Assembly: GCA_964549505.1 (NCBI GenBank)
Contig: CAZJVD010000005.1
Span: 64,618 to 128,617 of the forward strand
Origin: an uncultured Oligoflexia bacterium
GTDB lineage: Bacteria > Bdellovibrionota > UBA1018 > CAZJVD01
Direction of reading: 5' to 3'
Length of the DNA: 64,000 nt
Each line of letters starts with the position of its first letter. The first letter of the stretch is position 1. The notes under the pieces are model-generated. The model saw only the letters and a list, made by a program, of their open reading frames with translations. It did not search any database and was not told the DNA's origin. The translations under genes and the position numbers were made by a program. Shown here piece after piece: positions 32,839-47,954 of the stretch.

Positions 32839-33438
32839 CTAAAACGCCACTTTCGGTGCCTGAGCAGCTCCCTGCTCCGCTGAAAAAGACTCGCGTACAT
32901 TCAAATGTAGAAGATATTTTGCTGTGAGATTCGTCGGAAAGTGACGAACCAGTTCGTTGTACTCCTTGATGGACTCAGCAAAGCGAACGCGCGCCACATT
33001 GATACGATTCTCAGTTCCTTCTAATTGTGCCTGGAGATCCCGAAAGTTCTCGTTAGCTTTGAGATCGGGATACTTCTCGACCACAACCAAAAGACGGCCG
33101 AGAGCTGAGCTCACGCTCGACTGAGCATCCGTATACTTCTTGATCGCCGCCGGATCTCCGACTTGCTCGGCTCGAAGGCCACCACCGCTGGTCGCCTGAA
33201 GCGCTTTGGTGCGCGCTTCCATCACCGCCGTAAGCGTATCTTTTTCATGCTTGGCGTAACCTTTTACGGTTTCCACAAGATTGGGGATCAAATCAAAACG
33301 GCGTTGGTAAGCAGCTTCGACGGTGGACCACGACTGTTTGACGGCTTCGTCGGCTGATTGCAAACGATTGTACCCACAACCACTTAAGATAACGAGTGCA
33401 GCAAACACACTCAGAGACAGCAGTTTCTTTGTTTTCAT
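32839..33438 (-). CDS. lemA: LemA-family protein
   Basis: MKTKKLLSLSVFAALVILSGCGYNRLQSADEAVKQSWSTVEAAYQRRFDLIPNLVETVKGYAKHEKDT is the LemA signature. The LemA then TPM-family gene order is classic. Confidence 0.85.
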   Translation of the reverse strand: MKTKKLLSLSVFAALVILSGCGYNRLQSADEAVKQSWSTVEAAYQRRFDLIPNLVETVKGYAKHEKDTLTAVMEARTKALQATSGGGLRAEQVGDPAAIKKYTDAQSSVSSALGRLLVVVEKYPDLKANENFRDLQAQLEGTENRINVARVRFAESIKEYNELVRHFPTNLTAKYLLHLNVRESFSAEQGAAQAPKVAF

Positions 33439-33474: not shown

Positions 33475-36400
33475 TTAATCTTCGGGGTTTGCGCGCAGAC
33501 TCTCGGCGAGTTCGTCGTACAGAGCGCGCTGCCACGAAAGCAGGGCTTCAGGCTTCACGGCTTTTGCTTCTTGCGAAGCCACGCTGCGGTACCCATGGCG
33601 CCAAGCTGCACGCGCTAAAAACAGATGAACCGCATCGGCATACTTTGGATTTTTTTCCGCGACCTTCAGCAGTGGAGCCGCGGTCCAAGGATCACCCAGA
33701 GCCAGTCGCATAAACCCTATCAGGAAACTTCGGTCTTCGAGGGACTCATTTGAGTACGCTACGTACTCCGCTGCTGCCCATCCGCCTTTTTGAATGAACT
33801 GATAGACCTTATTAAGTCCCGAGGTCTTTTTCCCTTCGCGTTCGGCTTTTTCGAAGGCCGCTTCGAGCGCGAAGAGATCGTCCGCTTGATCTGGAACGTC
33901 TGGAAAGCACGGCATCTGATCGCACAGCGGTGGCTTCGCCTTTTCCAGAGGTGGCATGTAAACGAGTTGCTCGCGTTCGCGATCACAAACATTCTTTTCT
34001 TGATTGTAGATCGACTTCATCTCGACAATCTTTGAGTCGATCTTCTTTACAAAGTCCGGCCACTGTTTACTTTCAATGACGGGGCTCTTCATGAAAACAA
34101 GTCGGTCCACTGCATCTTTCTGAATCTTTGCAGCGGCGCAAAGGGCTGTGATTGTCACCTGAGGAACACCGGTATTGAGAAACTTTTTGAGCTCGTCCTT
34201 GCTGGCACCCAGATCTTTGAGTGTTTCAGCGACACGATCGAGTCGCGATCGAAGCTGTTGTGCTGCCGGACCACTGTCGGATGCTGGTTTACGATCGTTC
34301 GCCCATTTTGCTGACGGGAGCTTACTCACATCGAGGCCACTCTCCATCACGCGCATCCAAAGAGGCTGGAGAACACCCACGCCTCGAAGCGTTTCGGCGT
34401 TGGCCTGCAGATAAACCTTGATCTCGTCGTACACGGGATGCTTATCCCGAAGTGTTTGGAGATAAACATCGCGCATCAGAATCCACACCGGCGCTTCAGC
34501 TTTCTTTGGATCCAGGAGCGGCTTCAAAGACGCCCATGCCGATTGATAGATCTTGTTCCAATAGTACATCCGCGCGATGGTAAGACGGTTCTTTGACTCA
34601 AAGAGAAAGGGAGCTTTCCGTTCAAGGAGAATCGCGATCTGCTCTTTCGTCTTCTTGGGTTCGTAGTAGCTTCCGTACAACAGCATGGCTTCCCAACGAA
34701 TAAGATCGTGCTTGGGATGATCGGGATACACAGCAAGTCCCTGCACTAAGGCATCCGCGCGATGGACCATCTGTCCGAGGCTCTCCCATGCTTTTGCTTC
34801 TTGCATGAAAATTTGAAACACGAGTTCCGATGAATTCTTATCGAGACCCGGGCGCGCAACGCCAGAGGCCTTGAACCGTTCGAGCTCCTTGAAAAATTCT
34901 TCTGATTCGGCTGGCAACTTATACGTGACCAAAAGGTTGTGCCAACTCTTCACCGTCACATCAGATGCAGTGCTAGAGCCCGTAGCTCGTGCGTACCATG
35001 CCCTTGCCTCGACCGAGTTCTTTGCCTTCTCTTCTTTGAAAGCAGCCTGGAAGGCCGCTTCCTGACGAATGCTTTTAACTTGTTTCAGGAACTCTGCGCT
35101 CTTTGCATCGCCCTTCTTAGAGACGATTTCGGCGACAGCGTCGGAGGATAGGAATGCTTCTCTCCACTGCTCGTCTTTATACAAGCGCTTGTTATGCGAA
35201 AAAAACTGTTCTTCGTGGTGCTTGTCCACTCCATCGCGATCGAAGAGCATCACGAGAACGTTACGCGCACGCTCAAACTGCGAAGCGTAAAACAGCGACT
35301 CAAGAACCAGAAACTCAGCAAGGGTCTTATCTTTCGACTTTGGAAACTGCTGAATATACCACTCGGCACCTTCAGCGACTTTCACGTAATCGTCCGCGCC
35401 GACTCCCTTTTGGTTCGCCAACTTCTGCGATACTTCCTTGAGAAGCCGAAGAACACTCAACGCAGCATCGTCACGGTTTTCGTAGCCTTGAATCTCAGCC
35501 GCGCGACGATACCAGGCCAACGCATCGACGGTTTGCTTGAGTTGTTCCTTGCGTTGCGCCCCGTAGTACCAGAGATGACCCTCTTTAGAGTTAGGATAGT
35601 GACTGAGAAACGAAGCGTACAGTTCGTCCGTGGCTTTCCAGATATCGCGATCGTCGGTCTTCTTCGCTTCTTTGTGAATCGTCAGAAGAAGTGCCACGAT
35701 CTTGCTTTCGAGATCGTCGCCCTCTTTGCTGTCCTTCGGAAGTTTCGGCAGATACTCTTTGAGAGCAAGTGGCATCAGCTCTCGTTTGCCAGCGGCCAAT
35801 AGTGTGTAGAGCAACTCGTTCATCCAGAGGTACGAACGCGTGTCGCTCGGAGTTTTGAGCAAGATACTCCACACGGATATCGAGTCTTCAAATCGTCCGA
35901 TTTTTTTGTAGACCAACGCGAGACGTTCACGAGCCCGAATTTTGTCATCCGCTGTCCACCCAAAAATTTCGAGTTCTTGAAGCGCATCTTTGAAGCTGGC
36001 CTGCTCTGCCAACATCATGAGCATGTCCTGTCGCGCCTCGCGCGCTAAACTACCCGGAAGATCCGCTTGGTCACGATGACGTTGATAGTGAAGCACAAGA
36101 CGCTCGAGGTGACGAAGAGCAGCCCACTTCTTTTCCTGGTTGTAGAGAACCCACGATGCCTTGTAGACGCCATACGCCGACTTTTCGGGGTTGCCCAGTT
36201 GGGCAAGCAATCGATAGTTCACGATGGCTTTCTCAAAGTTTGCATCGTCAAAGTAGTAGTCCGCTAAGATCTGAAAAACGTCGGCGCGGTACACCCCATT
36301 GGGATAGAGCTCGCTGAACCTGTTTAAGAACGGAATCGCCTCGCGCGTTTTCGTCTGTTCCCACAAGCAAGCAATATAGAGGAAGGCAGCGTCTTCCGGT

Positions 36401-37638
36401 AAGGACGCTCTTCCTTTTTCAACCATGGCATTAATGATGGGTCTAAGAAGATTCTCGGCGATTCGAAGCGCTTCCTGAGACTGCGTCTTGTACTTGGTCG
36501 GGTCTTCGACACGATAGACGCTGGCCAGATGCCAGTGAAGTTCCGCGCCCAGGTGCACGACCGCTCCGTCGCGCGCTGAATCGGGTATCCTTTTGTAGAG
36601 ATCCACAAGCTTCGAAAGGGCCCCGAGACGTGTCTTAAAATCCCCAGTTGCCGCTTGCTTGTCGACATAGTGGTCAAATCCAGTTTCAACTAAGAACTTT
36701 TCTCGCAGCACTTCAAGAGCGTTTGGAACAAGTGCGTGTTCAGCCCGCGCGAAAGCTCGTTCTTTATCGCCGCTCCGCGAGAGCGTGAAAGCTTCGATGA
36801 GCGCGAGCTCACCTCGCTCACCGTCACGCATACGCTTTTCAACATCGTGAGCGGCATCCAACGCGCGTGTCAACTCCTCCGTACGTGTGTGCGTTCCCAA
36901 GGCGAGTAAAGACCAAAGACGTCCGAGCGATGCAGCAGGTGCGAAGGCCGAGTTTTCAGGAATCGCTTCAAAGTAGACGAGCGCTTCATCGAATCGCTTC
37001 TTTTGGTAGTAGGCGCGACCCAGTAAAATGTACGCTAACTCACGCCACAGTTCGTACGGGCCAACTGTCCCGACATACAACTGAGCGGGAGCGCCCGAAC
37101 CACCCGAAACATAAAGAGGATCAAAGCGTGACTCGGACAGGAGAAGCTCAAGGTTCTCAATGACGACGTCGGCTTTTCCTTCGAACTCGTGATCAAGCGC
37201 TTCAAGGGTCACACGCACGGGGTAGTCCGGGCTCTGCTTGCCAATCGGCCAGGACTTTAGCGCCTTCTTGAGAGTGTCGGTTGTATCGAGCCAAGTCGCC
37301 AGATCCGACATCTGAAGGGGGCGGACGATCTCTGCTACTTTTTCTGGTGCGTTTTCTGTCACTCTTTTCGCCACCGTGTTCGAAGGCGCCGCTGACGAGA
37401 CCACCGACGGATAGACCTCGGGTTTGTTAGCTGGCTTTGTGACGGGTTTTGCGCCCTTTGAAATCTTTTTCTGAACGGTCTTTTTCTGAGAATTTTGCTT
37501 TGGCGCCGGCTTTACAGGTCGTTTCGCTGCCGATTTTGCTTTTGCCTTGCTGACGGGCTTCGCCGCATGCACGCTCGAAAGCGATAGACTCACGGCAACG
37601 GCCATAGCTGCTACGACGCCGGCGAGACACCTCATCAC
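33475..37638 (-). CDS. giant (1387 aa) secreted TPR-repeat protein with a Lys/Ala/Pro-rich N-terminal region
   Basis: Signal peptide AMAVAVSLSLSSVHA, then KPVSKAKAKSAAKRPVKPAPK. It shows TPR-like periodicity throughout (LG/AY/YY helical hairpins). Its start overlaps the stop of the GYF-PilZ gene by 4 bp. Confidence 0.6.
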   Translation of the reverse strand: MMRCLAGVVAAMAVAVSLSLSSVHAAKPVSKAKAKSAAKRPVKPAPKQNSQKKTVQKKISKGAKPVTKPANKPEVYPSVVSSAAPSNTVAKRVTENAPEKVAEIVRPLQMSDLATWLDTTDTLKKALKSWPIGKQSPDYPVRVTLEALDHEFEGKADVVIENLELLLSESRFDPLYVSGGSGAPAQLYVGTVGPYELWRELAYILLGRAYYQKKRFDEALVYFEAIPENSAFAPAASLGRLWSLLALGTHTRTEELTRALDAAHDVEKRMRDGERGELALIEAFTLSRSGDKERAFARAEHALVPNALEVLREKFLVETGFDHYVDKQAATGDFKTRLGALSKLVDLYKRIPDSARDGAVVHLGAELHWHLASVYRVEDPTKYKTQSQEALRIAENLLRPIINAMVEKGRASLPEDAAFLYIACLWEQTKTREAIPFLNRFSELYPNGVYRADVFQILADYYFDDANFEKAIVNYRLLAQLGNPEKSAYGVYKASWVLYNQEKKWAALRHLERLVLHYQRHRDQADLPGSLAREARQDMLMMLAEQASFKDALQELEIFGWTADDKIRARERLALVYKKIGRFEDSISVWSILLKTPSDTRSYLWMNELLYTLLAAGKRELMPLALKEYLPKLPKDSKEGDDLESKIVALLLTIHKEAKKTDDRDIWKATDELYASFLSHYPNSKEGHLWYYGAQRKEQLKQTVDALAWYRRAAEIQGYENRDDAALSVLRLLKEVSQKLANQKGVGADDYVKVAEGAEWYIQQFPKSKDKTLAEFLVLESLFYASQFERARNVLVMLFDRDGVDKHHEEQFFSHNKRLYKDEQWREAFLSSDAVAEIVSKKGDAKSAEFLKQVKSIRQEAAFQAAFKEEKAKNSVEARAWYARATGSSTASDVTVKSWHNLLVTYKLPAESEEFFKELERFKASGVARPGLDKNSSELVFQIFMQEAKAWESLGQMVHRADALVQGLAVYPDHPKHDLIRWEAMLLYGSYYEPKKTKEQIAILLERKAPFLFESKNRLTIARMYYWNKIYQSAWASLKPLLDPKKAEAPVWILMRDVYLQTLRDKHPVYDEIKVYLQANAETLRGVGVLQPLWMRVMESGLDVSKLPSAKWANDRKPASDSGPAAQQLRSRLDRVAETLKDLGASKDELKKFLNTGVPQVTITALCAAAKIQKDAVDRLVFMKSPVIESKQWPDFVKKIDSKIVEMKSIYNQEKNVCDREREQLVYMPPLEKAKPPLCDQMPCFPDVPDQADDLFALEAAFEKAEREGKKTSGLNKVYQFIQKGGWAAAEYVAYSNESLEDRSFLIGFMRLALGDPWTAAPLLKVAEKNPKYADAVHLFLARAAWRHGYRSVASQEAKAVKPEALLSWQRALYDELAESLRANPED

Positions 37639-38519
37639 GCCACCTCCCTTGTCGCTCGCGGTGCGTGCGCAAGTTCGTGCATGACAAACTCGGCAATCTG
37701 CCTGCGTAGCTTCGGACTCATACGGAGAAAGAATAAGCCAACACCCTTCTTGCCATCGTGATTGAGCACACGAATCACAACTGTCGAAACCGAGAATGTT
37801 CCGATGCCAGGGACACCCCGAAGCGTGACAACAAGCTCCTCTCCTTTTTCAAAAGGATCCTTCTCGTCCAAAAGAACGAAGACACCCTTTTCGGAGATAT
37901 CCGCACACCGCGCTGTGATCACACGTTTATGGTCGTGCAGAATAATCGGAACTTCGAGTGGAACACGCGGGTAACGGCGATAGTTGTTTTCTGTCGTGTA
38001 CTCACCGGGCTGGCGTGGTTCAGGACGTGGCTCAGGACGCGATTCGATGCGCTGGTGTGGTCGAACGGCGGGTTCAGGCCGAACAGGTTGGCGGCGTTGA
38101 ACTGTTTGGGGCACCTTTTGGGCCACCGTTTGCGGCGCTGGTTGTGGAGTCGGTCGAACAACGGGTTTTGAAACAGGTTTTGCCGCTGCTTTTGCCACAG
38201 GCGGCGGGGCAGTAACGGGCGCCGGAGACGACGCAGGCTTCGCGGGTTTAAAGCTCGGAGCGGGCGGAACAGGAACACTCAAAGTCGGTGGTCGCTTCTC
38301 CAGATTCTCGGTGAAGTCGACAACCTCAAAAATTCGTTTCCAGCTCTTCTCACCCGTCTGGGCCCAGAGAGAACAGTAGATAAACTCGTCAAAACGCAGC
38401 GTTCCCGCGCTCAACCGGCTTTGAATATCCTCGGTCCTATAAGGACCAACAGGATCTCCGGATTCCGAATCTGGCAGATACCAGCGTTTCTTTGGAGGTT
38501 TTTTTGATGTTGAGTCCAT
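37635..38519 (-). CDS. GYF_2 (DUF4339)-domain plus PilZ-domain protein with a Pro-rich linker; putative c-di-GMP receptor
   Basis: N-terminus WYLPDSESGDPVGPYRTEDIQSRLSAGTLRFDEFIYCSLWAQTGEKSWKRI (GYF_2 pattern). C-terminus RRYPRV (RxxxR) and DISEKGVFV (DxSxxG) PilZ motifs. Confidence 0.7.
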   Translation of the reverse strand: MDSTSKKPPKKRWYLPDSESGDPVGPYRTEDIQSRLSAGTLRFDEFIYCSLWAQTGEKSWKRIFEVVDFTENLEKRPPTLSVPVPPAPSFKPAKPASSPAPVTAPPPVAKAAAKPVSKPVVRPTPQPAPQTVAQKVPQTVQRRQPVRPEPAVRPHQRIESRPEPRPEPRQPGEYTTENNYRRYPRVPLEVPIILHDHKRVITARCADISEKGVFVLLDEKDPFEKGEELVVTLRGVPGIGTFSVSTVVIRVLNHDGKKGVGLFFLRMSPKLRRQIAEFVMHELAHAPRATREVA

Positions 38520-38701
38520 TGCTCTAGAGCCTGCTCCTATTCGTAGACTTTTCGGCGCCTTGACCAGTTTTTTTAACCCCTAAGTAGGGCGTGTCCTGGT
38601 GTCAAAAATCGGCATTTCCGTTCAAGGAGTGCCCTTAAAACGCCGAAACGTTACCCAGGAGAAGCATAGCGAAAAGCATAACGAGACGTAGAACGACTCA
38701 T

Positions 38702-40303
38702 ATGAGGGACTTCCGAGGACTCTTCTTCATTATTGGTATCGCTTCATTACCCGCGCTGGGTGGCGCCGGGTTCCGCCTTGCGTCCGCCGCCGACGCGAGC
38801 TTCGGTTTTTACTTCGACACGAAAACACAGCGCTACTTTGCGAGCAACGTGTCGCGCTTCCTCTCCCGCTCTGGAAAGAACCCAAACATGGGGTTGCTTG
38901 AAGTGAGTGTCAACGGCAGCGCCTTTGAGACATTTGACGGTACGATCGACTTTGGTGAAGAAGGAAACTATGAAGTTCGTTTCCGAACCCCCGACACAAA
39001 GCTGAGCTGGACGCCTGTCCAAGAGTTCAGCGTTTGGGTGGACCTCACCCCTCCGGAAAGTGCACCGACCTGGCAGGGCGCAGTTTTTGAACGGGACGGA
39101 AAGACGTTCGTCACAAGTAAGTCGGCTCTGACCGTTCAGGCTCAAGACAATCTGTCCGGAGTGAAAAATATCTTTTGGAAGAAAAAAGAAGGACCGGCTG
39201 TTTTCCCTGCCAAACTACAGTTTCAAAAAGAAGGGCCCGTTGAGATCGAAGTTGCTGCCCGTGATTTTGTCGGCAATACAGAAGCCTTCTACCCTGTGCG
39301 CTTCGTCGTCGACAACACGGCTCCCGAAACATCTGCAGTGATTGAGGGCAAATCTCAAGACACGCAAGCGGGGCGCTTTATGGCGCGCGGAAGTCGTATC
39401 ACGCTCAAGGCTCGAGATGACGCTTCGGGCGCTGCACGCACCGAGTATCAGATCGGCAATGGACCCGTGACAGAATTTACGGCACCACTCCTGATCACCG
39501 AAAATAAAATGGAGCTCAAGTTTCGCTCGGTCGACAATGTCCAGAACGAGGAAGCTTGGAAAACGCTCTCCGTTCTTCAGGATAGCACTCCGCCGACGCT
39601 TGCTCTCAAACGTCAGGGACAGTTTATCGCTTTTGCAGGACGCACCTACGCAAAACCAGGATTCAAGTTAGCGCCCAGCGCTTCAGATCAAGGTAGCGGC
39701 CTTGAGCGGATCACTTACGCCTTAAACAAAGCTGGATTTCGAACACTCGAGAGCTCGGCTCTGGAGTTTCGTGACCCCGGTATCTTCGAAATTCGAATCG
39801 TTGCGCGTGACCGCATTGGCAACGAGGCAGAGAGCAGTCCAACGACCGTCGTGATCGACAACCAAGCTCCCGTCACAGAGCTCATCACGCAGCAAGCGTC
39901 CACAGACAAAGAAGGTGTTCTCCACACTCAGATTCCAAACCGAATTGAATTCGAGGCAAAAGACACAGGTATCGGCCTTGAACGCATCGAGTACAGTTAC
40001 GACGGTTCCGAATACAGCACATTTTCAAAACCCATCGACCTCAGTCTCTGGGAAACGTCCACACGTACAATGTTTTTTAGATCCGTTGACCGCCTCGGAA
40101 ACACCGAAGCTGCAAAAAAAGTGACGGTTTCCGTGGTCAACACCAAGCCGACCGTGGACCTCTTTGTCGAACAAGCATCCTTGCCGGAAGTTCCACTCTC
40201 GCGCCTGGAAGGCGGAGTGCCGAAAGTGCGTGAGCCGGCGTCCTCAAATCCTCGCGTCAAAGCGAAGTCCGCACCGGTAAAACGCAAAGGAGGTCGCCGA
40301 TGA
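38702..40303 (+). CDS. secreted protein with four tandem ~95-aa Ig-like (Big-type) domains and a basic C-terminal tail
   Basis: Signal peptide LFFIIGIASLPALGGAGF. Repeats are delimited by D(L/N/S)T(P/A)P(E/T), each containing a D-x-SG-x-x-x-I-x-Y motif (DNLSGVKNIFW, DDASGAARTEYQ, DQGSGLERITYA, DTGIGLERIEYS). Confidence 0.55.
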   Translation: MRDFRGLFFIIGIASLPALGGAGFRLASAADASFGFYFDTKTQRYFASNVSRFLSRSGKNPNMGLLEVSVNGSAFETFDGTIDFGEEGNYEVRFRTPDTKLSWTPVQEFSVWVDLTPPESAPTWQGAVFERDGKTFVTSKSALTVQAQDNLSGVKNIFWKKKEGPAVFPAKLQFQKEGPVEIEVAARDFVGNTEAFYPVRFVVDNTAPETSAVIEGKSQDTQAGRFMARGSRITLKARDDASGAARTEYQIGNGPVTEFTAPLLITENKMELKFRSVDNVQNEEAWKTLSVLQDSTPPTLALKRQGQFIAFAGRTYAKPGFKLAPSASDQGSGLERITYALNKAGFRTLESSALEFRDPGIFEIRIVARDRIGNEAESSPTTVVIDNQAPVTELITQQASTDKEGVLHTQIPNRIEFEAKDTGIGLERIEYSYDGSEYSTFSKPIDLSLWETSTRTMFFRSVDRLGNTEAAKKVTVSVVNTKPTVDLFVEQASLPEVPLSRLEGGVPKVREPASSNPRVKAKSAPVKRKGGRR

Positions 40304-40614
40304 GACAGATCCTCCTATCATTCATAATCGGTGTCTTCGCCCTCAGTGTACCACTCGCCGTACAAGCTGCTCCTAAAGCACGCGCGAAGGCCACCGCGTC
40401 TTCCGCCGACAAGAAGAAAAAGGTCATCTACCGCAAGTACACACAGCTCGATTTCACCGGCGAATCCGTACAGGGACAAGCGAAAGCCCCCGAGATTTTC
40501 TACGTCTTTCAACGCCGACGCGCTGGCGGTATCGAAGCTGCTCGCGCTCCCTCGTCGCTCAGCCACCAAAAGACCACGACCTTTAACGAATTGAAAGGAG
40601 CGCTCGTACCATGA
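40300..40614 (+). CDS. small secreted Lys-rich hypothetical protein
   Basis: Signal peptide FIIGVFALSVPLAVQA. ATGA overlaps on both sides indicate translational coupling. Confidence 0.4.
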   Translation: MRQILLSFIIGVFALSVPLAVQAAPKARAKATASSADKKKKVIYRKYTQLDFTGESVQGQAKAPEIFYVFQRRRAGGIEAARAPSSLSHQKTTTFNELKGALVP

Positions 40615-42362
40615 GTGGGCTAGCTCTTTTCTTACGAGATCCGGTCTATAAGTCGGAACGTTTCGTCAGCAGCATTGGAACGCGCTCGGTGGTCGGCAAT
40701 AGCAAAGACGTTCAAATCTTCGTCGACGACATCCGCTGCAGCCCCGTCCACGCACTGCTCGAAGCTCAAGCCGATGGAAACCGTGTGACGGTCATCGATC
40801 TAGGGAGCCGGTTTGGTACCTACACCCAAAAAGGTGCTCGTGTTCAAGAACACACGATCGCCGTTGGCGAGTCGATTGTTATTGGCAGCCAAACGCTCGT
40901 TCTTCGCCCGACACCCAAAGATGATCCGTCTCAAGTCGCCATGAGCGATCGCTCGAAAGCAAAACCTGTCGCCACGGCCAAATCGGGAGACATCGGCCTC
41001 ATCACCGATCGAACCCTTCTTCAAGCCACGCTCTTTTGGGGAGAACAACCGCTCGAGGTACGAACGTTCGAGTCCGGATCTGATCTCACCGTCGGTCCTC
41101 AGAAGCACGCAACCTTCTGTGTGAGCCTCATGGACTCGCGCTTTCACGGCGCACCGTTTGCGATTGCGCACTATGCTCAGAACGAACTTCTCCTGAACGT
41201 TCCGCCTGAAATGTCGGGACTCATCTGGGTCGGCCAGGATCCCATAGCGCTGGATACTTTACGCAATAAGGCTCCTCCAACACGTGACAATCCAGAACTC
41301 AAAGTCCGACTGCGTCTCGGAGATCGTGCGGAACTGCATCTCGGCGAACTGACGCTCAGTTTCGTGTTCGTCAATCCGTCTGAGAAAATCCCGACTCCGG
41401 TCTTTCGAGTGACGGACCAGATCCTTCTGCGCGTTTTTATATTCATGATGGCATTTTACGGGCTTGTTTTTGTCGCTCTCAACGCCATCACACCGGAGGA
41501 AGAGCCAACCACACTCAAAGATGTTCCGAAACATCTCAAACGCGTGGTCATGGATGCCGGTATTGCGCAGGCCATGAAAAAACAACGTGCCGCAATCGGT
41601 GAGCTCGCGATGAATAACGAAGGCGGACGCGCGCGCGGAGAAGAAGGACGCGCTAAGGCGGAAAACAATCCTCGTGAAGCCGAAGCTCAACAGAACAAGG
41701 CGATGCAGCAAAAAGCGTTGCCCAAAAAAGCTGGCGATACGAAAGTTGCACAACAGCAAGAACAAGAGGCTGATCTCGATCTGGATGCGGCATTCAACAG
41801 CACGACGAAGAAGGCCCTTTCGGGCAGCGTCTCCGTGGTCGGAAAGCGCAGCGACGGTAACACCGCAACGGCACTTGCCGACGGCGGTTTTGCGCGCGGC
41901 CGCGTAGGCGAAGGAAGCGGTGGCGGCGGACAGAGTGTGGGTATAGGAGCGCTCAGCGGGCTCAGTACCGGCGGCGGCATGGGATCAGGAGACTACGGTC
42001 TCAGTCCTTCGAAAGGTCGCGAAATCAAAATTCCTGAAGGCGAAGAACTCGTGATTCTCGGTGGATTGGACCCCGATGTCATCGCGAGCATTATAAAACG
42101 TTACCTGCCGCAGATTCGTCACTGTTATGAAACTCAGCTCAGTCAGAACTCGCATCTTAAAGGCAAGGTCGGCGTGTCGTTTGTGATCGGACCGAACGGT
42201 AACGTTCAGAACGCAACGATCTATGAAAGCTCTCTGAACGAGCGCAACACAGAGGCGTGCATCATCAGTAAAGTTAAAGGCTGGAATTTTCCTAAACCAC
42301 GAGGTGGGGGAACCGTCGGCGTACGGTATCCGTTCCTCCTCATGTCCACACAGGACAAGTAA
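40611..42362 (+). CDS. FHA-domain / single-transmembrane / TonB C-terminal-domain protein (TonB- or TolA-like energy transducer with a cytoplasmic FHA head)
   Basis: The N-terminal FHA block is RSVVGNSKDVQIFVDDIRCSPVHALLEAQADGNRVTVIDLGSRFGTYTQKG. The transmembrane segment is ILLRVFIFMMAFYGLVFVALNAI. A Lys/Gln/Glu-rich linker follows. The C-terminal KGKVGVSFVIGPNGNVQNATIYESSLNERNTEACIISKVKGWNFPKP matches the TonB_C fold. Confidence 0.7.
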   Translation: MSGLALFLRDPVYKSERFVSSIGTRSVVGNSKDVQIFVDDIRCSPVHALLEAQADGNRVTVIDLGSRFGTYTQKGARVQEHTIAVGESIVIGSQTLVLRPTPKDDPSQVAMSDRSKAKPVATAKSGDIGLITDRTLLQATLFWGEQPLEVRTFESGSDLTVGPQKHATFCVSLMDSRFHGAPFAIAHYAQNELLLNVPPEMSGLIWVGQDPIALDTLRNKAPPTRDNPELKVRLRLGDRAELHLGELTLSFVFVNPSEKIPTPVFRVTDQILLRVFIFMMAFYGLVFVALNAITPEEEPTTLKDVPKHLKRVVMDAGIAQAMKKQRAAIGELAMNNEGGRARGEEGRAKAENNPREAEAQQNKAMQQKALPKKAGDTKVAQQQEQEADLDLDAAFNSTTKKALSGSVSVVGKRSDGNTATALADGGFARGRVGEGSGGGGQSVGIGALSGLSTGGGMGSGDYGLSPSKGREIKIPEGEELVILGGLDPDVIASIIKRYLPQIRHCYETQLSQNSHLKGKVGVSFVIGPNGNVQNATIYESSLNERNTEACIISKVKGWNFPKPRGGGTVGVRYPFLLMSTQDK

Positions 42363-42380
42363 TTTTGAGAGGGGCAGACT

Positions 42381-43448
42381 ATGGATAAACTGATTACATA
42401 CTTCCAAGAAGGCGGGCTGATCATGTGGCCGGTCCTTATTCTGTTGATCATCGGCTGGACGGTGATCGCGGAACGGATCTACATGGTTCTGTTTGTTTAC
42501 AACGCCGATGGGGCCATGCTGATGCAGAAGCTTCAGCGGCTGATCCTCGATAACAATCTTAACGAAGCGATCAAGCTCTGTAACAGCAACAAGAAAGCTG
42601 CCGTTTATCAAGTGCTCAAGGCAGCACTCGTCAACGCGGACCGACCTTTCGAAGAACTTCAAGGGCATGTTGAAGTCGCGACTCTAGGCGTTGTTCCCAA
42701 GCTTCAACATCGGATGACCTACTTGTTCTCGATTGCGAACACCGCAACCCTCATCGGTCTTTTAGGAACGGTTGTCGGTCTGATCGAAACGTTCGGTGCC
42801 GTCGCCGTGGTCGAAGGATCACAGAAACAGGAGATGATCTCAGGCGGTATCGCAACCGCTCTGAACGCAACGGCGTTTGGTCTCTTTGTCGCGATTCCGT
42901 GTATGCTCGCGTACGGATTTCTATACAACCGCATCAACGGTGTTATCGATGATGTTGAGCACTATTCAGCCCGACTTTTGATGCTGTTGCGCACCGGCCG
43001 CGAGTACTTCGAAAACTATACTGTCGATAAGACTGTTTCGACGGAACAGCGCCCAAAAATGGCGAAGAAGAAGTCCCCTATTCCGCCTTCTCTAGGCGGT
43101 GGAGCCGCGGCTCGAGCACCAGCCCCAGCTCGCCCCAAGGCTCAGGCCCGTCCAGTCGCACAGCCCGTTCGGGGCGGCACCAATCCGTCGATCGCTCGCG
43201 GTTACACACACTCTGGGATCCATGCAGCGCCTCATCTCGCTCAGCCTCCGGTTTCACCACCTGTTGTCGAGGAAACGGCCGACGAGCAGCTGGAGGAAAC
43301 AGGTACGTACGTTGAACGCGACGATGTCGGATACCACACCGTAGGTGCCAGCGCGGATGACGCGGTCGAGGCACAGGAGCAGGAACAAGTCGACGAAGCT
43401 TACGAAGATGGCGGCGAAGACAGCGGAGACGACGAGAATGCAGCGTAA
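42381..43448 (+). CDS. MotA/TolQ/ExbB-family proton channel with a ~140-aa Pro/Ala-rich then strongly acidic C-terminal tail
   Basis: LIMWPVLILLIIGW..LFSIANTATLIGLLGTVVGLIETF..GIATALNATAFGLFVAIPCMLAYGFLYNRI are the TolQ/ExbB motifs. The tail ends ..EEQLEETGTYVERDD..EAQEQEQVDEAYEDGGEDSGDDENAA. Confidence 0.85.
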   Translation: MDKLITYFQEGGLIMWPVLILLIIGWTVIAERIYMVLFVYNADGAMLMQKLQRLILDNNLNEAIKLCNSNKKAAVYQVLKAALVNADRPFEELQGHVEVATLGVVPKLQHRMTYLFSIANTATLIGLLGTVVGLIETFGAVAVVEGSQKQEMISGGIATALNATAFGLFVAIPCMLAYGFLYNRINGVIDDVEHYSARLLMLLRTGREYFENYTVDKTVSTEQRPKMAKKKSPIPPSLGGGAAARAPAPARPKAQARPVAQPVRGGTNPSIARGYTHSGIHAAPHLAQPPVSPPVVEETADEQLEETGTYVERDDVGYHTVGASADDAVEAQEQEQVDEAYEDGGEDSGDDENAA

Positions 43449-44061
43449 ACGCAAAGAAATGATGCAGAGTGAGCTGACCATCATCTCCTTGATGGACGTG
43501 CTCACGACCCTGCTCTTCTTCTTGCTCGCAACTTCGTCTTTTTCGCAATTTGCGATCCTGACAGCGTCATCGATGTCTCAGAGTGCGTCTCCTCCCAAGG
43601 AAGACAAGCCGAAGTTCAGTCTTCAGATCGCGATGAGCTCGCCGAATGATGTTGCGATCTTTCTGGGTCCCGCGGCGAAACTTCCGATTCGTGACAAGGC
43701 CCGGCTCTATCAGTACCTGTCTCAGAATTTTAAGGGCAATGAGAACATCGGGTGGGTTCGTCAGATTCGCGGCCCTCAAGCACGTGAGGTTCTCGCCCGC
43801 GTACAGGAGACACTGAAGGTGATCAAACTTGGCTTTCCTCACGAAAACCAAGCGGTCGTGGTTTTTGCCGATCCCGTGCCCTATCAGGAAACCATTGAGG
43901 CGATCTCCGCCGTACGATCGTTGCCGGATACCGATCCTGGCTTTCGAATGGATAAGCTCACAGGGGGTTCCGAGCTCACACGCGTCCTTTTTCCTGAGAT
44001 CGTTGTGTCTGAAATGGAAGGCGATCTCCGCGTCGCCGGTCGACCCATGGGTAAGTCGTGA
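43438..44061 (+). CDS. ExbD/TolR-family protein (paralogue 1, extended C-terminus)
   Basis: MQRKRKEMMQSELTIISLMDVLTTLLFFLL is the ExbD N-terminal transmembrane signature. Its start overlaps the tolQ-like stop by 11 bp. Confidence 0.7.
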   Translation: MQRKRKEMMQSELTIISLMDVLTTLLFFLLATSSFSQFAILTASSMSQSASPPKEDKPKFSLQIAMSSPNDVAIFLGPAAKLPIRDKARLYQYLSQNFKGNENIGWVRQIRGPQAREVLARVQETLKVIKLGFPHENQAVVVFADPVPYQETIEAISAVRSLPDTDPGFRMDKLTGGSELTRVLFPEIVVSEMEGDLRVAGRPMGKS

Positions 44062-44615
44062 TGAGAAAGAAAAGCCTGATCAAGAGCACGCGCGGCCATC
44101 GTCATCATCCTGAGATGAGCATGAATATTACGGCCCTGATGGACATTCTCACGGTTTTGCTCTTCTTCTTGATCAAGAGCTACAACGTGTCGGCCTCGTC
44201 GTTGACACCGCCAAAGGACATCACGCTTCCAAAATCGCGTACCGAAGACAAAGCCGAGCAGTCGATCGTATTAGCCATCACAAAGACTGCTGTACTCCTG
44301 AATAATGACCCGATCGCCCAGCTGCAACAAGGCAACTTCGCTCGCCGTGACATTGCCGGAGACAACCGAACCGTTCTACCGATCAAAAAAATTCTCGATC
44401 AAGAGCAGAAAAAGCGCCTTGCGATCTACAAAGACGAAGGCAATCTCAGCTTCCTGCCACCGGGTAAGATCCTGATCCAGGCCGACTATAAGCTACCCTT
44501 TAACGTCCTGAAGTATCTCTTGCACACGGCTGCGATCAGCGGTTACTCCGACTATCAATTCGTTATCCAAAACGTGTCGCCAGGACCTGCTCCCGCCTCT
44601 GTTCCCAAAAAGTAA
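44061..44615 (+). CDS. ExbD/TolR-family protein (paralogue 2)
   Basis: MSMNITALMDILTVLLFFLI..SIVLAITKTAVLLNNDPI..NVLKYLLHTAAISGY. A 1-bp TGATG overlap with the previous gene. Confidence 0.7.
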   Translation: MRKKSLIKSTRGHRHHPEMSMNITALMDILTVLLFFLIKSYNVSASSLTPPKDITLPKSRTEDKAEQSIVLAITKTAVLLNNDPIAQLQQGNFARRDIAGDNRTVLPIKKILDQEQKKRLAIYKDEGNLSFLPPGKILIQADYKLPFNVLKYLLHTAAISGYSDYQFVIQNVSPGPAPASVPKK

Positions 44616-44670
44616 CACCTTCAAAACGCCTCGCGACTGGCGCCCCGATCACGCCCATTCACACGTCACC

Positions 44671-44707
44671 CGCGAAACTTTTCGCAGCTCCTTGTTTTTT
44701 TTGTTTG
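44671..44707 (+). terminator. weak rho-independent terminator candidate after the exbD paralogue
   Basis: Short stem gcgaa-actt-ttcgc followed by ctccttgtttttttgtttg. The stem is only 5 bp. Confidence 0.25.
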
Positions 44708-44717
44708 TACAAATTTT

Positions 44718-45560
44718 TTGAATGTGTTTCTTATCGCTTATGTGGGTAGGGAGTTTAAATTTGGAGCCAGAGAGTTGAACGCGCTCCGGGCCACGTTGTT
44801 TGGCCTGTTGTTCGCACTCGGTCAGACGTTGTTCGTTGTAAGCGGTTGGTGCGATCCCACTGAGAACGGCCTGCGTGCTTTGTCTGGTGGACCACCGCCG
44901 GGACGCGATCCGATTGTCCCGCAGGACCTCATCGCTGAGATCCGGCACTCACTACCTGAAAGCAAACTAAAGCTCGAACTCGAACGCATCGAGGAAACGC
45001 TCGATACGTTGCCAGCTAGCTTTGCGGAAGGCGAAGGACCAGCGCTTGAGAAACACCTCGGACGTCGGTTTGCCGAGACGCTTTTGAGGGCCCGCGTCCT
45101 TGATGCGATGGACATCGGTACGGCGGCAGCTGCAGAAGAGCAGCGTGAGAATGCTCGCGAGATCCTTCGAACGGCCCTTGCGGTAGCGATCCGTACCCAG
45201 TACGGACTGGACCGCCTCGCCGATAGCTTTAACTCCAAGCGACTTTTGGCCTACATGTTGGTCGAAGTGTTTACCGTTTCCGTCGCCATTATAGGCTCGA
45301 ACTACTACAAAGAAGTGGGAACCCTTCAGTCGCTGGTGCTCGCCCAGGCCATCGCTCTTGCGGCGATCTTGCCGGTACGCTGGTTCTTTCGAACCGTTAA
45401 GGTCTCACGGATGGATGCCCTGATGGATCACTTCTGGAAAGGTGTGAACGAACGAGGTCTTGAGATTCCCGATCGAAAGACATTTCTGAGAGAAACCCTC
45501 GGCATCCCGGAAGGCACTACTAATTGCCAGATTCTTTTAGGTCTCCGAAAACCCAGCTGA
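44718..45560 (+). CDS. hypothetical secreted protein (periplasmic, unknown function)
   Basis: The track start at 44718 is a TTG. A signal-peptide-like LNALRATLFGLLFALGQTLFVVSGWC begins about 44775 after a GGAGCCAGAGAG stretch. I recognised no domain. Confidence 0.4.
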   Translation: MNVFLIAYVGREFKFGARELNALRATLFGLLFALGQTLFVVSGWCDPTENGLRALSGGPPPGRDPIVPQDLIAEIRHSLPESKLKLELERIEETLDTLPASFAEGEGPALEKHLGRRFAETLLRARVLDAMDIGTAAAAEEQRENAREILRTALAVAIRTQYGLDRLADSFNSKRLLAYMLVEVFTVSVAIIGSNYYKEVGTLQSLVLAQAIALAAILPVRWFFRTVKVSRMDALMDHFWKGVNERGLEIPDRKTFLRETLGIPEGTTNCQILLGLRKPS

Positions 45561-45645
45561 ACGGGTGTCAAATAGACAGGTCCCGGAAACCCTGGCGAAA
45601 ACTGGCGCTTAGGTTCGATTTTTTACATGATATTGATTTAATAAA

Positions 45646-46917
45646 TTGTGGTATATACGGCGCGGTATGATTGCGTTGTTACTGTCTCTCCTTTTCACTC
45701 CACCAAGCCACGCCATCACACCTGTACGCATTTTCTATCTCCCGCTCTGGAGCCTGGTTCACGAAGACGTCCTCATTGATCGAGGGACTCGCCAGACCGA
45801 GGGCGCCGGCTGCACACGTTATCAATCCACGCTTCCAGGTCGCGCCGATCTTGGAAAGGGAGTGCTCCATCTCTGCCCCTGGTCGATCGATTATGTCATG
45901 GCCCTCGTGATCGCGGACTTCCTCTCACTCGACACGCGCTACTTCGGACACCCCGTGTTTCTACAAAGGGACGATCAGGTCCTTCGTGGCTTTTGGACCC
46001 CTATCCTCCCGCTGCTACGTGAGTCGCCTGAGGGGTCGCTGAGCGACCGTGCTCAGGCTGTTCAGAGCCTCACTCTTCGCACCAAGATCGAGATGATAGG
46101 ACAGATGCTTCTCTTGGGAGTCACGGGTCTCGATTCCTTCTGGGAGAACGAAGCTCCCCTTCAGGACCTCTTCGTCAAACCGCGTACCGCAGGACCCGAA
46201 CTTGTTTCTTTTACGATGACCCGACCTCGGTTCAACCGTATTCGCAGTGGAACAACGGACCCGGTAGAAGCTGGCAAACAATGGGCAAAAGATGCGGCCA
46301 GGGCGCTCAGCACCATTCAGTCGCTACTGCGCGATTCCAAGTTTCGTGAATCGCCAGAGTTCTTCGCACTGCGAAGACTCTTCAAGCGTCTCAGGCAGCT
46401 GCCTCAGCTCTTCGATGCCGACTCACCGATTCGGGACCTCGTTGACCGATGGAGCCAAGCTGCGGCGACTGAGCCGGGGGTAGTCTCCAGCTTCGAACTG
46501 AACGACACGGGGCAAGCCAGCTCCAGACGAGAAGCGACCTTTCCGTCATCAGATGAGGTCGTCACCGCCCAGTCGATCCAGGCAGAATACCGGGACTACG
46601 TAACGAAGTTTGCAAAAGCTGCTGAAACCGGCTTTGCACACGCATTCGACCTGGAAATATTTCCAGAAAGAGATTTTTTACAAGGTCTCACTTCGGAGAT
46701 TTCACAAAAGGCTCTTTGGACACTCAACAACCATGTCATGACATTTAGCACTGATCATCGTGGCGGCTCTGCCGAACTGCAACGACTTTGGCTCTCGATA
46801 CCCGATCGGCATTCGCATGCCATCAACCCCGAAGCCTGGACGACATTGCGCGCTCAAGCCAAGTGCGACGCCCGTCTCAAACCTCATCAAACGGGGCAGA
46901 AAACCCCAGAAGCATGA
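45646..46917 (+). CDS. hypothetical secreted protein
   Basis: Signal peptide MIALLLSLLFTPPSHA. 423 aa. No recognised domain. Confidence 0.45.
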   Translation: MWYIRRGMIALLLSLLFTPPSHAITPVRIFYLPLWSLVHEDVLIDRGTRQTEGAGCTRYQSTLPGRADLGKGVLHLCPWSIDYVMALVIADFLSLDTRYFGHPVFLQRDDQVLRGFWTPILPLLRESPEGSLSDRAQAVQSLTLRTKIEMIGQMLLLGVTGLDSFWENEAPLQDLFVKPRTAGPELVSFTMTRPRFNRIRSGTTDPVEAGKQWAKDAARALSTIQSLLRDSKFRESPEFFALRRLFKRLRQLPQLFDADSPIRDLVDRWSQAAATEPGVVSSFELNDTGQASSRREATFPSSDEVVTAQSIQAEYRDYVTKFAKAAETGFAHAFDLEIFPERDFLQGLTSEISQKALWTLNNHVMTFSTDHRGGSAELQRLWLSIPDRHSHAINPEAWTTLRAQAKCDARLKPHQTGQKTPEA

Positions 46918-47954
46918 ACGTCTCCCGGAGTGTCCTGGGCAGTTTCTTTCTCTCGGCTCTAGCCGGTTGTTTCACGTACTCAGAACCTGCTCGCCACCCG
47001 CAGATCGACGCTTATCTCATCAGAGAGTACGGGACCTCGGACTTACAAAAAACCCATTCACAGTACGCTGTATTTGAGACCGATGGCCCTAATGAGTTTC
47101 TAGAACTGGCGATCACACTCGCCGAGTTTCCTCGGGAACGCTTCCGCGTCGAACGGCCCGAAACGGGTAATGTGAAGATAGCGGTCAAACTTCTCGGCCA
47201 CTCGGATGCTGCGATCGATCAGTTTCGAGAAAGGCATGTCGCGAGCTCGGGACACCTGTTCGACATCACACCCGACATCTACTGCTACAAAGTGAACGAC
47301 GACGCCTCCAAGATCGCTGGCGTCTGCATCTATGAAGTGGTGGTCCTCATCCCAGAGACCTCAAACACGGCCGTCTCGATCAACGGTGAACGCGTGATGC
47401 GTCCCGCTGAAGTGTGGACTCGATCCGACCTCAAAGCTCGTCTCGCAAACCTTCTACCATCCGAAACGACCGAGCAGATCTTCGCGATCTATGTCGAATC
47501 GCAACGCGCAAAGCGCTTTCTCACGATGAACGATGTTCTCGAGACGATCGCTTGGATCGCAGCGGCTCCTTCACGATCGATGGACTCGACACCGTGGCGA
47601 ACCGTTATCGATCGTCTGACGGGTCATGTGACGGATCCTGAGAACAGTTTCCGTGCTGTCGTGCGGAAGTTAACAGACGATCCCGCGATGATCTTCCCCG
47701 TCGTTCCGTTCGTAGAGGCGTTCTCGGAACGTGGTTATCCTGTGCCATGGAGGGATGTGACCGACCTTATCAACACAATCGACCTGACACAGGCGTCGCT
47801 TCCGCTCATTGGAACCGCTCTCGGAACGTATCCGGACGACGGTCCGATCATCTCAGCAAACGATTTGGAAGCTCTTATGGCCGTGGAACGCAGGCGCCCT
47901 CAAGGACAAATGGAAACGATCCAACGCCTACTCGGGCATCGAGTCCTACGGTAG
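46914..47954 (+). CDS. hypothetical lipoprotein
   Basis: Start taken at MNVSRSVLGSFFLSALAGCF (lipobox LAGC). This ATG overlaps the upstream stop (ATGA). The track ORF from 46788 would overlap the previous gene by 130 bp. Confidence 0.5.
   Translation: MNVSRSVLGSFFLSALAGCFTYSEPARHPQIDAYLIREYGTSDLQKTHSQYAVFETDGPNEFLELAITLAEFPRERFRVERPETGNVKIAVKLLGHSDAAIDQFRERHVASSGHLFDITPDIYCYKVNDDASKIAGVCIYEVVVLIPETSNTAVSINGERVMRPAEVWTRSDLKARLANLLPSETTEQIFAIYVESQRAKRFLTMNDVLETIAWIAAAPSRSMDSTPWRTVIDRLTGHVTDPENSFRAVVRKLTDDPAMIFPVVPFVEAFSERGYPVPWRDVTDLINTIDLTQASLPLIGTALGTYPDDGPIISANDLEALMAVERRRPQGQMETIQRLLGHRVLR

Follow-up and report, generated by a model that had tools for sequence, protein, structure and literature searches.

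Luciano et al. described the Glt 'core complex' as aglRQS plus gltD, gltE, gltG and gltC (PMC3169522). In Bdellovibrio bacteriovorus HD100, four 'expanded core' clusters are present, each with GltC/GltB-type genes, GltG, usually GltF, GltD and AglSQR (PMC3169522). The HD100 genes Bd1474 to Bd1483 code for GltC, GltB, GltG, GltF, GltD, AglS, AglQ, AglR, the PilZ protein Bd1482 and the MIDAS lipoprotein Bd1483 (PMC3169522; PMC3271064; PMC2277423; PMC11003981). The PilZ gene, which lies beside aglR (Bd1481) and the MIDAS lipoprotein gene Bd1483 (PMC11003981; PMC2277423), heads this gliding operon, and its product was proposed as the gliding receptor for cyclic di-GMP (c-di-GMP) (Hobley et al. 2012; PMC3271064). 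According to a review of 2026, it is 'a major open challenge' to identify the motor of Bdellovibrio, its adhesins and the path by which force is transmitted (PMC13104615). Here we describe a related locus in a DNA stretch of 64,000 nucleotides (nt), hereafter the window, from an uncultured Oligoflexia bacterium (GCA_964549505.1, contig CAZJVD010000005.1, positions 64,618-128,617 of the forward strand). As judged from comparison with related genomes, eight genes of the window (33475-44615) form a sharply bounded module whose order is conserved across metagenome-assembled genomes (MAGs) of the Bdellovibrionota. Because the encoded proteins include homologues of GltG, GltF and GltD together with an AglRQS-type set of subunits, we read the region, with a probability of roughly 0.6, as a compact variant, specific to Bdellovibrionota, of the Agl-Glt machine that spans the envelope and transduces force.

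The conservation of the module was examined by a scan for GltG-like loci in one genome per GTDB species. The scan returned 20 orthologous loci (L001-L020), labelled Bdellovibrionia, Bacteriovoracia or Oligoflexia, and 60 further, more distant GltG/GltJ loci, mostly from Myxococcota. About 25 related loci in all were compared by tblastn and with family hidden Markov models (HMMs). In every orthologous locus that extended far enough, the genes for the OmpL47-type, GltF-like, GltG-like, TolQ, TolR and TolR proteins followed each other in this order. The divergently oriented gene pair for the PilZ and GltD-like proteins adjoined them in 12 of the 14 informative loci seeded from GltG, and both exceptions (L020 and L014) lie at a contig boundary. 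The L020 contig stops before any PilZ/GltD-like pair could appear; at the usual site of that pair, upstream of the OmpL47-type gene, it carries a pair of HEPN/nucleotidyltransferase-like genes together with a gene for an AAA ATPase (L020:2223-4324), probably an insertion of mobile or defence genes. In the reverse test, the PilZ/GltD-like pair was present in all five loci seeded from GYF-PilZ proteins. The full divergent operon was also present in the loci seeded from the protein P0053, and the contigs seeded from P0057 carry a gene of the HD-GYP type followed by a truncated downstream gene, with the rest of the module of this MAG on a second contig (L009). The eight-gene order is kept at 25-66% amino-acid identity over many genomes, which is far beyond chance. 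The family sizes are alike, with 43 representatives of the GYF-PilZ protein (E<=1e-30) and 47 hits for the GltG-like protein. The distant GltG homologues had no TolQ/TolR, PilZ or OmpL47-type gene within 10 kb. The flanks of the module differ in every lineage compared, so the module ends at the stop codons of the second TolR gene and of the GltD-like gene. Within the module, start and stop codons overlap by four bases between the GltD-like and PilZ genes (37635-37638), the OmpL47-type and GltF-like genes (40300-40303), the GltF-like and GltG-like genes (40611-40614) and the two TolR genes (44058-44061). The coordinates of all features are given in Table 1.

Table 1 Features of the locus, as positions in the window, with the family matches or traits by which they were assigned
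Feature	Position	Strand	Size and characteristics
GltD-like periplasmic TPR/helical-repeat protein	33475..37638	-	1387 aa; signal peptide, then Lys/Pro/Ala-rich disordered N-terminus
Cytoplasmic GYF-PilZ protein	37635..38519	-	294 aa; GYF-like ~11-72, linker ~75-180, PilZ 181-285
Divergent control region	38520..38701		182 nt; two back-to-back FliA (sigma-28)-type promoter matches
FliA-type match facing the PilZ/GltD-like genes	38550-38576	-	TTAAA-N16-CCGAAA
FliA-type match facing the plus-strand operon	38622-38648	+	TCAAG-N16-CCGAAA
Secreted tandem OmpL47-type beta-domain protein	38702..40303	+	533 aa; signal peptide, basic C-terminal tail
GltF(CglF)-like small secreted protein	40300..40614	+	104 aa; NF033764 and family HMM
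GltG-like TonB-type transducer	40611..42362	+	583 aa; FHA 3.8e-09, NF033760, NF033768, structure model
AglR/TolQ/ExbB-family proton-channel subunit	42381..43448	+	355 aa; MotA_ExbB 4.6e-26
TolR/ExbD-family subunit 1 (TolR1, AglQ/AglS-like)	43438..44061	+	about 207 aa; ExbD 3e-06; longest open reading frame from 43345
TolR/ExbD-family subunit 2 (TolR2, AglQ/AglS-like)	44058..44615	+	185 aa; ExbD 3e-11; last conserved module gene
U1	44718-45560	+	two C-terminal hydrophobic segments; no canonical lipobox
U2	45646-46917	+	signal sequence; overlaps U3
U3	about 46914-47954	+	lipoprotein, LAGC lipobox

Domains were assigned with Pfam (gathering scores) and NCBIfam (family and equivalog cutoffs), and the protein scans of the window covered most of its open reading frames (ORFs). 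The GltG-like protein matched the GltG model NF033760 over residues 136-579 with an E-value of 1.8e-65 (221.7 bits, below the equivalog cutoff of 650 bits). Its C-terminus is an AgmX/PglI C-terminal domain (NF033768, 1.8e-29, 101.7 bits against a cutoff of 40), and the Pfam TonB_C match (6.6e-05) reached 23.7 bits against a gathering score of 24.6. An AlphaFold2 (AF2) model built on 25 orthologues predicts an FHA domain (residues 1-100), a disordered link, an all-beta domain (136-254) directly before the membrane helix (270-292) and a periplasmic part with a further helix (307-336), about 145 disordered Gly-rich residues and a TonB-like C-terminal domain (488-577). The FHA domain gave strong FHA fold matches in structure comparison. 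For the central domain, an FHA-like nature may be considered from its predicted all-beta fold and its position; no FHA likeness was returned by profile-profile comparison (hhalign probability 2.4%) or by PDB profile searches. The protein has all five parts known from GltG, namely FHA, second beta domain, helix, linker and AgmX/PglI-type C-terminal domain: GltG of Myxococcus xanthus carries an FHA domain, a second FHA-like domain by the membrane helix, a disordered linker and a TonB-like C-terminal domain, and its binding to GltI was proposed to occur via an FHA-type domain (PMC11761067). The full-length relatives of the GltG-like protein are 36-53% identical to it, and all those with a named source are from Bdellovibrionota MAGs.

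Two further Glt-like proteins were recognised. The GltF-like protein matched the CglF model NF033764 at 4.4e-05 and 23.4 bits, under the 90-bit cutoff, and with its family HMM the ORF at the gltF position, small and immediately upstream of gltG, was recovered from about 35 other loci, among them loci of Myxococcota and Bdellovibrionales. Position and size, a small secreted protein encoded immediately upstream of gltG, fit GltF. In the GltD-like protein all Pfam TPR models stayed below the gathering score, a YbgF-like TPR stretch was found at 1.8e-07 and no NCBIfam Glt model matched. Residues ~425-690, when compared by tblastn and family HMM, matched the 3.4-3.7-kb ORF that in many Myxococcota loci occupies the gltD position, upstream of gltE-gltF-gltG (E 1e-16 to 4.5e-27). 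By these matches and its signal peptide the protein corresponds to GltD, the giant secreted TPR protein MXAN_4870. One metagenomic lineage has a stand-alone receiver gene of the response-regulator type directly after the GltD-like gene, on the same strand (L081:12441-12806, L082:7976-8341, L083:9882-10247).

The motor genes comprise one TolQ and two TolR, each TolR with the proton-relay aspartate in the membrane, and so correspond to an AglRQS-type set. The aspartate is invariant in 19 orthologues of each subunit, within the motif LMDVLT in TolR1 and LMDILT in TolR2. The start of TolR1 is probably the ATG at 43438, overlapping the TolQ stop, because alignments of the orthologues begin near residue 30 of the longest ORF. 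The helix after the third transmembrane segment of the TolQ-like subunit and its STQQxPK motif are conserved in the orthologues, which measure 229-265 aa against 355 aa here; the difference lies in a cytoplasmic, Pro-rich and acidic tail of about 120 aa that occurs in this genome only. Many TolQ-like (L004-L008, L018, L019) and GYF-PilZ orthologues (L001, L004, L006, L008, L015) end in -AA (NAA, DAA, EAA, KAA or TAA), as does the TolQ-like protein of the window (-NAA), and these ends resemble C-terminal Ala-Ala protease-recognition tails by sequence.

The first gene of the plus-strand operon encodes a secreted protein with four or more tandem OmpL47-type beta domains. The domain model NF047446 matched in four stretches (2.4e-53, 178.4 bits against a cutoff of 40), and Pfam Big_3_3 was found at 3.7e-07. 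The full-length OmpL47 equivalog was not reached (190.6 bits, cutoff 250). An OmpL47-type gene was present in every orthologous locus that reached its position and in none of the Myxococcota GltG loci, which by gene content marks it as a lineage-specific member of the module. The namesake protein is described as surface-exposed in Leptospira interrogans (PMC2698987).

The divergent operon begins with the gene for a cytoplasmic GYF-PilZ protein. Its PilZ domain (Pfam PF07238, 7.5e-16, 58.8 bits against a cutoff of 22.5) has intact RxxxR (RRYPR) and DxSxxG (DISEKG) motifs, and both were kept in 11 of 13 orthologues in the alignment. The AF2 model contains two folded domains with pLDDT confidence scores of ~85-90, among them the PilZ barrel at ~88. 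The best structural matches of the latter are c-di-GMP-bound PilZ domains, led by MotI of Bacillus subtilis (5vx6) and including YcgR (5y6f/5y6g) and Alg44. A beta-barrel with both c-di-GMP motifs, as seen in sequence and model, is what a PilZ receptor would require. The N-terminal domain is, by its family profile, probably a diverged GYF domain. GYF_2 was matched in the window protein at E=0.034 (14.4 bits against a cutoff of 25.8), in the orthologues by 10 of 13 proteins with a best E-value of 2.6e-07. The family profile matched the nuclear magnetic resonance structure of the GltJ (AgmX) GYF domain (7z3c) with E=0.0077 over 64 residues, and the AF2 model shows the order beta-beta-alpha-beta-alpha(-beta)-alpha at a pLDDT of ~85. 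In M. xanthus, the GYF domain of GltJ binds a proline-rich segment of AglZ and helps to assemble focal adhesions (PMC11135422).

Word-indexed searches with the GYF-PilZ protein and with its alignment gave only 3 and 8 proteins, respectively; the Pro-rich linker probably swamped the word filter, and an exhaustive HMM search of representatives was used instead. This search returned the 43 tight, full-length representatives and a wider set of GYF_2-PilZ and GYF_2-GYF_2-PilZ proteins, so that the GYF_2-PilZ architecture, as far as domain models tell, exists beyond this module. A literature search for GYF together with PilZ yielded nothing relevant. Both the Pro/Ala-rich, disordered linker of the GYF-PilZ protein and the TolQ-like tail occur in this genome only: the window carries long Pro-rich low-complexity expansions at 42990-43448 (TolQ-like tail) and 37980-38295 (PilZ linker), and the orthologues are without them. 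Since GYF domains bind proline-rich segments, these expansions could be lineage-specific ligands or mere drift. The acidic, Pro-rich tail as a general ligand of the GYF domain was dropped from consideration in view of the tailless orthologues.

A link of the module to c-di-GMP is indicated by the intact PilZ motifs, by the profile match of the GYF domain to GltJ and by the gene content of those lineages in which the PilZ motifs decayed. The two orthologue groups concerned (L016/L017, and P0057 in L084/L085) carry a gene of the HD_5 family between the PilZ and OmpL47-type genes, and their GYF-PilZ proteins have lost RxxxR/DxSxxG or have no Pfam PilZ match. The inserted gene is of the HD-GYP type, with the motif HHERPDGSGFP, and was located at L017:6720-8198 (+), L014:66-962 (+), L084:1743-3242 (-) and L085:1164-2663 (-). 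In L014 it lies directly upstream of the OmpL47-type gene, at the contig end. This suggests that in the HD-GYP lineages the c-di-GMP component of the module was swapped, and such a replacement of an intact PilZ site offers a natural experiment on the same signalling axis.

The two operons face away from each other across the 182-nt control region, in which promoter motifs were sought with the Bdellovibrio attack-phase FliA consensus TTAAG-N16-CCGATA, counting up to two mismatches (<=2) as a match; FliA governs most attack-phase genes of B. bacteriovorus (PMC3627812). The whole window contained eight matches, no more than expected by chance. Two of the eight fell inside the control region, each on the strand of its own operon, where 0.02 were expected. 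The pattern TAAA-N15-GCCGAWAA had a single match in the window, at 38549-38575 (-), which is the same minus-strand site. Over 17 orthologous control regions, nine had a match on the plus and six on the minus strand, against 0.46 expected per strand in total, an enrichment of about 13- to 20-fold. Several of the orthologous control regions scored 12-14 of 16 against the E. coli-type sigma-28 consensus, which taken alone gave a non-significant score on the plus strand of the window. The motif enrichment suggests that promoters of the FliA (sigma-28) type probably drive both operons. A generic scan for sigma-70 promoters and terminators gave counts at the level of shuffled sequence, with no clear terminator after TolR2, and Rfam contained no c-di-GMP or cyclic GMP-AMP (cGAMP) riboswitch and no other RNA family for the window or the control region.

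The original prediction, drawn from the bare sequence of the window, had proposed an Agl/Glt-like machine of eleven genes, and its observations were largely right. All eleven ORFs appeared with their coordinates in the ORF listing, and the intergenic span at 38520-38701 was rightly taken as a shared divergent region, as was the count of one TolQ plus two TolR. The proposed GltG likeness of the FHA-TonB_C protein agrees with the NF033760 match and with the layout of the M. xanthus protein, and its statement that GltJ carries ZnR plus GYF and GltG an FHA domain is correct (PMC11135422; PMC11761067). Homology of the GltG-like, GltF-like and GltD-like proteins supports the core as such. Two observations that could have spoken against it did not do so: the PilZ/TPR and GltG/TolQR genes, supposed to belong together, are co-conserved in the relatives, and no TonB-dependent receptor was found in the window as scanned. 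Among its domain assignments FHA, PilZ and TolQ/TolR stood at family level and the PilZ domain with intact motifs, whereas TonB_C and TPR stayed below the Pfam gathering scores and GYF_2 became credible through the orthologues and the profile match to GltJ and not through the window protein. The supposed Ig-repeat protein is indeed a repeat protein, better described by OmpL47-type beta domains, and the acidic tail of TolQ is present here without being typical of the system in general. As Bd1482 had been noted in 2012 (PMC3271064), the c-di-GMP link is less novel than was implied.

The analysis shows homology, the layout of the domains, intact motifs, synteny and an enrichment of promoter motifs; from these we infer the following interactions, c-di-GMP binding, promoter use and motility output. 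One TolQ/AglR-like and two TolR-like subunits would form a stator that turns proton flow into movement, with a stoichiometry of AglR5:Q:S by analogy with the M. xanthus model. The GltG-like protein would dock on the stator via its membrane helix and the adjacent beta domain, and would contact both the GltD-like pillar and the GltF-like protein via its disordered linker and TonB-like C-terminal domain. The OmpL47-type protein may serve as outward-facing adhesin or connector in place of GltC/GltAB/CglB; it is put forward as the outward partner because it is the sole conserved candidate, is secreted, consists of tandem beta domains and has a surface-exposed namesake in Leptospira. The GYF-PilZ protein would sense c-di-GMP via its PilZ site, tether a proline-containing partner via its GltJ-like GYF domain and, with the stator or GltG as its target, serve as a clutch driven by the second messenger or as an adaptor for assembly, comparable to the action of YcgR/MotI on the homologous MotA stator. 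Transcription of both operons from FliA-type promoters would place the module in the attack-phase/motility regulon of Bdellovibrio-like predators. The output would most likely be a surface-associated, gliding-type movement, or a movement of surface proteins, in the free-living phase. When aglR (Bd1481) is disrupted in B. bacteriovorus, predation in biofilms is impaired (PMC2277423), and aglQ (bd1480) of this species is induced on surfaces (PMC9140294).

A more specific form of this proposal makes the GYF-PilZ protein a dedicated second-messenger clutch or adaptor of an Agl-type motor, in which direct nucleotide gating replaces the MglA/AglZ/GltJ polarity platform of myxobacteria and an OmpL47-type adhesin replaces GltABCK/CglB in a minimal, self-contained engine with which predatory Bdellovibrionota would glide or move surface proteins. 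Whether the stator complex of TolQ/AglR and GltG is tethered by the GYF domain to a partner containing proline would then depend on the binding of c-di-GMP to PilZ. As such a partner one might name, by way of speculation, the conserved STQQxPK tail on the AglR-like subunit or, for this genome, the expanded Pro-rich tail. We offer this form tentatively and regard it as less likely than not.

Several observations weigh against the assignment to an Agl-Glt machine. GltC, GltE, GltA/B/H/K, CglB, GltI, GltJ, AglZ and MglA were found neither in the module nor in the other ~50 kb of the window as scanned. A second TPR gene, as GltE or GltC would demand, occurred in the module of no orthologous locus, and the outer-membrane module (GltA/B/H/K, CglB) and the platform (GltI/GltJ/AglZ/MglA) were absent from the window and from the modules of the relatives; GltE and GltC could lie in another part of the genome. 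Luciano et al. argue that gliding takes more than the core genes (PMC3169522). The scores against the models of M. xanthus GltG and CglF lie far under the NCBI equivalog cutoffs, and all carriers found are uncultured MAGs. Both FliA matches of the window carry two mismatches. The contact of the GYF-PilZ protein with the motor is argued from analogy, and the role given to the OmpL47-type protein from its co-conservation and the surface exposure of Leptospira OmpL47. Finally, the FHA domain of the GltG-like protein (40611-40910) and of its orthologues is devoid of the canonical Arg/Ser/Asn residues that bind phosphothreonine: Lys, Asn or Thr usually takes the place of the Arg that follows the conserved Gly, the Ser of SxxH varies, and the Asn of NG is Phe or Tyr. 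An FHA domain without these residues is more likely a protein-protein module than a phospho-reader, and the residue pattern suggests a phospho-independent interaction module.

Among the other explanations, the one that survives best accepts a Glt-type core complex and gives it a non-motility task, namely to move or remodel some component of the envelope, for instance a polymer, a coat or even the surface protein of the OmpL47 type, comparable to the Nfs proteins of M. xanthus, which use AglRQS for spore-coat assembly, or to the core complexes of non-gliding Gammaproteobacteria. The absence of outer-membrane and connector Glt genes from the module and the scanned window fits such a task, as does the occurrence of core complexes in non-gliders, where they do not suffice for motility (Luciano et al., PMC3169522), and the sole conserved extra secreted protein could be cargo and not an adhesin. 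On the other hand, promoters of the sigma-28 type and the likeness of the PilZ protein to motor brakes agree better with a role in motility or the attack phase, and the missing Glt genes could be located elsewhere, as are aglRQS and the G2 cluster in M. xanthus. We therefore regard a non-motility task as unlikely, though to be taken seriously.

The extension of the machine to the whole eleven-gene stretch including U1-U3, as the original prediction had it, is improbable. These three genes share the strand of the plus-strand operon and adjoin it, U2 and U3 share an overlap of 4 nt and carry a signal or lipoprotein sequence, and all three look like real genes of native composition, with a normal in-frame coding signal, native GC content at third codon positions (GC3) and native codon usage. 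They are, however, separated from TolR2 by a T-rich gap of 102 nt and, after U1, by a second gap of 85 nt, the overlap of U2 and U3 being the only one. No homologue of U1-U3 was present in any of the ~25 related loci, in which the genes after TolR2 differ from lineage to lineage, and no Pfam or NCBIfam family was matched. On this comparison U1-U3 are neighbours and not members of the conserved module; the three coupled periplasmic proteins that had been counted into the machine do not belong to it, and the eleven-gene delimitation was wrong.

A divergent system of the Tol-Pal kind that serves envelope integrity or cell division, consisting of TolQ, TolR, a TolA-like and a YbgF-like TPR protein, is less probable still. 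It would account for the best named NCBIfam matches of the stator subunits, which are TolQ (1e-22) and TolR, for the closest solved stator, TolQ in the PDB (1.1e-11), and for the YbgF-like stretch in the giant GltD-like TPR protein. Yet the scores are far below the equivalog cutoffs, with 81 bits against 221 for TolQ and 24 bits against 162 and 23 bits against 127 for TolR, and neither TolB nor Pal was found in the window as scanned. Two TolR paralogues are present, the protein at the position of TolA is GltG-like with FHA domains and is accompanied by GltF-like and GltD-like partners, and a PilZ protein and sigma-28 motifs are ill-fitting. Membership in the Tol-Pal family was rejected on these scores and on the missing TolB and Pal genes. 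An ordinary TonB-ExbB-ExbD1-ExbD2 energiser of TonB-dependent nutrient uptake was likewise rejected as highly improbable, since, although the ExbB and ExbD Pfam families match, a TonB_C match exists and ExbD gene pairs occur in some TonB systems, the ExbB equivalogs reached only 46-47 bits against cutoffs of 135 and 206 with TonB_C also below its cutoff, the putative TonB protein has two cytoplasmic beta domains and a C-terminus of the AgmX/PglI family, and no TonB-dependent receptor or siderophore genes were found in the scanned window or in the modules of the relatives.

In the scanned remainder of the window there were no other Glt genes; the functions encoded there are unrelated and include an OPT transporter, an MFS transporter, RimK, CNNM, an S41 peptidase, ferrochelatase, LemA/TPM proteins, a Liv ABC transporter and a Kelch giant. 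At 31415-33438 (-), directly downstream of the GltD-like gene, lie a LemA gene (MamQ model 2.7e-25), two TPM-domain genes and then ferrochelatase, an arrangement that the other genomes do not have beside the module. A further group of genes at 54129-54995 (-), 55101-56165 (+), 56179-60828 (+) and 60825-62873 (+) includes a FecR-domain protein with a Gly/Arg/Cys-rich repetitive N-terminus beside a 1549-aa Kelch-repeat protein and two more ORFs of 354 and 682 aa without Pfam family, and looks like an uncharacterised surface or signalling cluster.

Bdellovibrio-like gliding and the route by which c-di-GMP or cGAMP signals reach the gliding motor are acknowledged open problems. The eight probably co-regulated genes described here pack a predicted inner-membrane motor (AglR/Q/S-like with GltG), a periplasmic pillar (GltD/F) and a putative built-in c-di-GMP receptor, with a GYF domain similar to that by which the myxobacterial machine is coupled to its cytoplasmic platform, into a compact module that is widely conserved in an under-studied predatory phylum. 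If functional, this would be far smaller and more tractable than the 17-protein apparatus of M. xanthus and could serve to study what couples a Tol-like stator to a periplasmic shaft and by which means a second messenger gates this coupling. The practical value is limited for now by the fact that every carrier found so far is an uncultured MAG; no outer-membrane components are encoded at the locus, and the functional steps are inferred. The expanded core clusters of Bdellovibrio and the PilZ gene in a gliding operon are ideas already published.

Compared with systems of related parts, the module shares the stator superfamily with Tol-Pal and TonB-ExbBD, including a TonB/TolA-like transducer with membrane helix, extended linker and small C-terminal domain. 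It differs from them in that the TolQ, TolR and ExbB equivalog cutoffs all failed, in the missing TolB, Pal and receptor, in the extra cytoplasmic FHA-type domains and in the Glt-type partners. The OmpL47-type protein has the repeated beta domain of Leptospira OmpL47 (NF047446), but belongs to another phylum and genomic context and stays below the equivalog cutoff. The combination of a small cytoplasmic PilZ protein with a proton-driven stator of the MotA/TolQ/ExbB family recalls the stator brakes and clutches YcgR of E. coli, MotI (DgrA) of B. subtilis and FlgX of Campylobacter, the last of which is described as stabilising the stator (PMC11725899). Unlike in YcgR/MotI, the partner domain is GYF and not YcgR_N or a second PilZ, and the stator is of the Agl/Tol type and not flagellar.

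With the Agl-Glt system of M. xanthus the locus has in common one TolQ-family and two TolR-family subunits, a GltG homologue of the same five-part layout with a GltF-like protein encoded directly upstream, a giant periplasmic GltD-like TPR protein and, judged by the family profile, a GltJ-related GYF domain in the cytoplasmic layer. In contrast to M. xanthus, where the homologues are split into the G1 and M1 clusters, all six Agl/Glt homologues are joined in one locus, which is without GltE, GltC, GltA/B/H/K, CglB, GltI, GltJ and AglZ. The GYF domain resides on a soluble PilZ protein and not on a membrane-bound TonB-like protein with ZnR, an OmpL47-type repeat protein is added, and the scores are far below the M. 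xanthus equivalog cutoffs.

The HD100 clusters are from the same phylum and likewise unite GltD, GltF, GltG and AglRQS homologues in one locus with an attached PilZ gene. They differ from the module in gene order and in that each carries GltB- and GltC-type genes and one a MIDAS adhesin, in whose place the OmpL47-type protein is found here, and the GltG-like protein had no close relative among the named B. bacteriovorus sequences in the searches made. The module is set apart from the known clusters, beyond the missing GltB, GltC, GltE and MIDAS adhesin, by its divergent two-operon layout, its obligatory OmpL47-type gene and the placement of a GltJ-like GYF domain on a PilZ partner.

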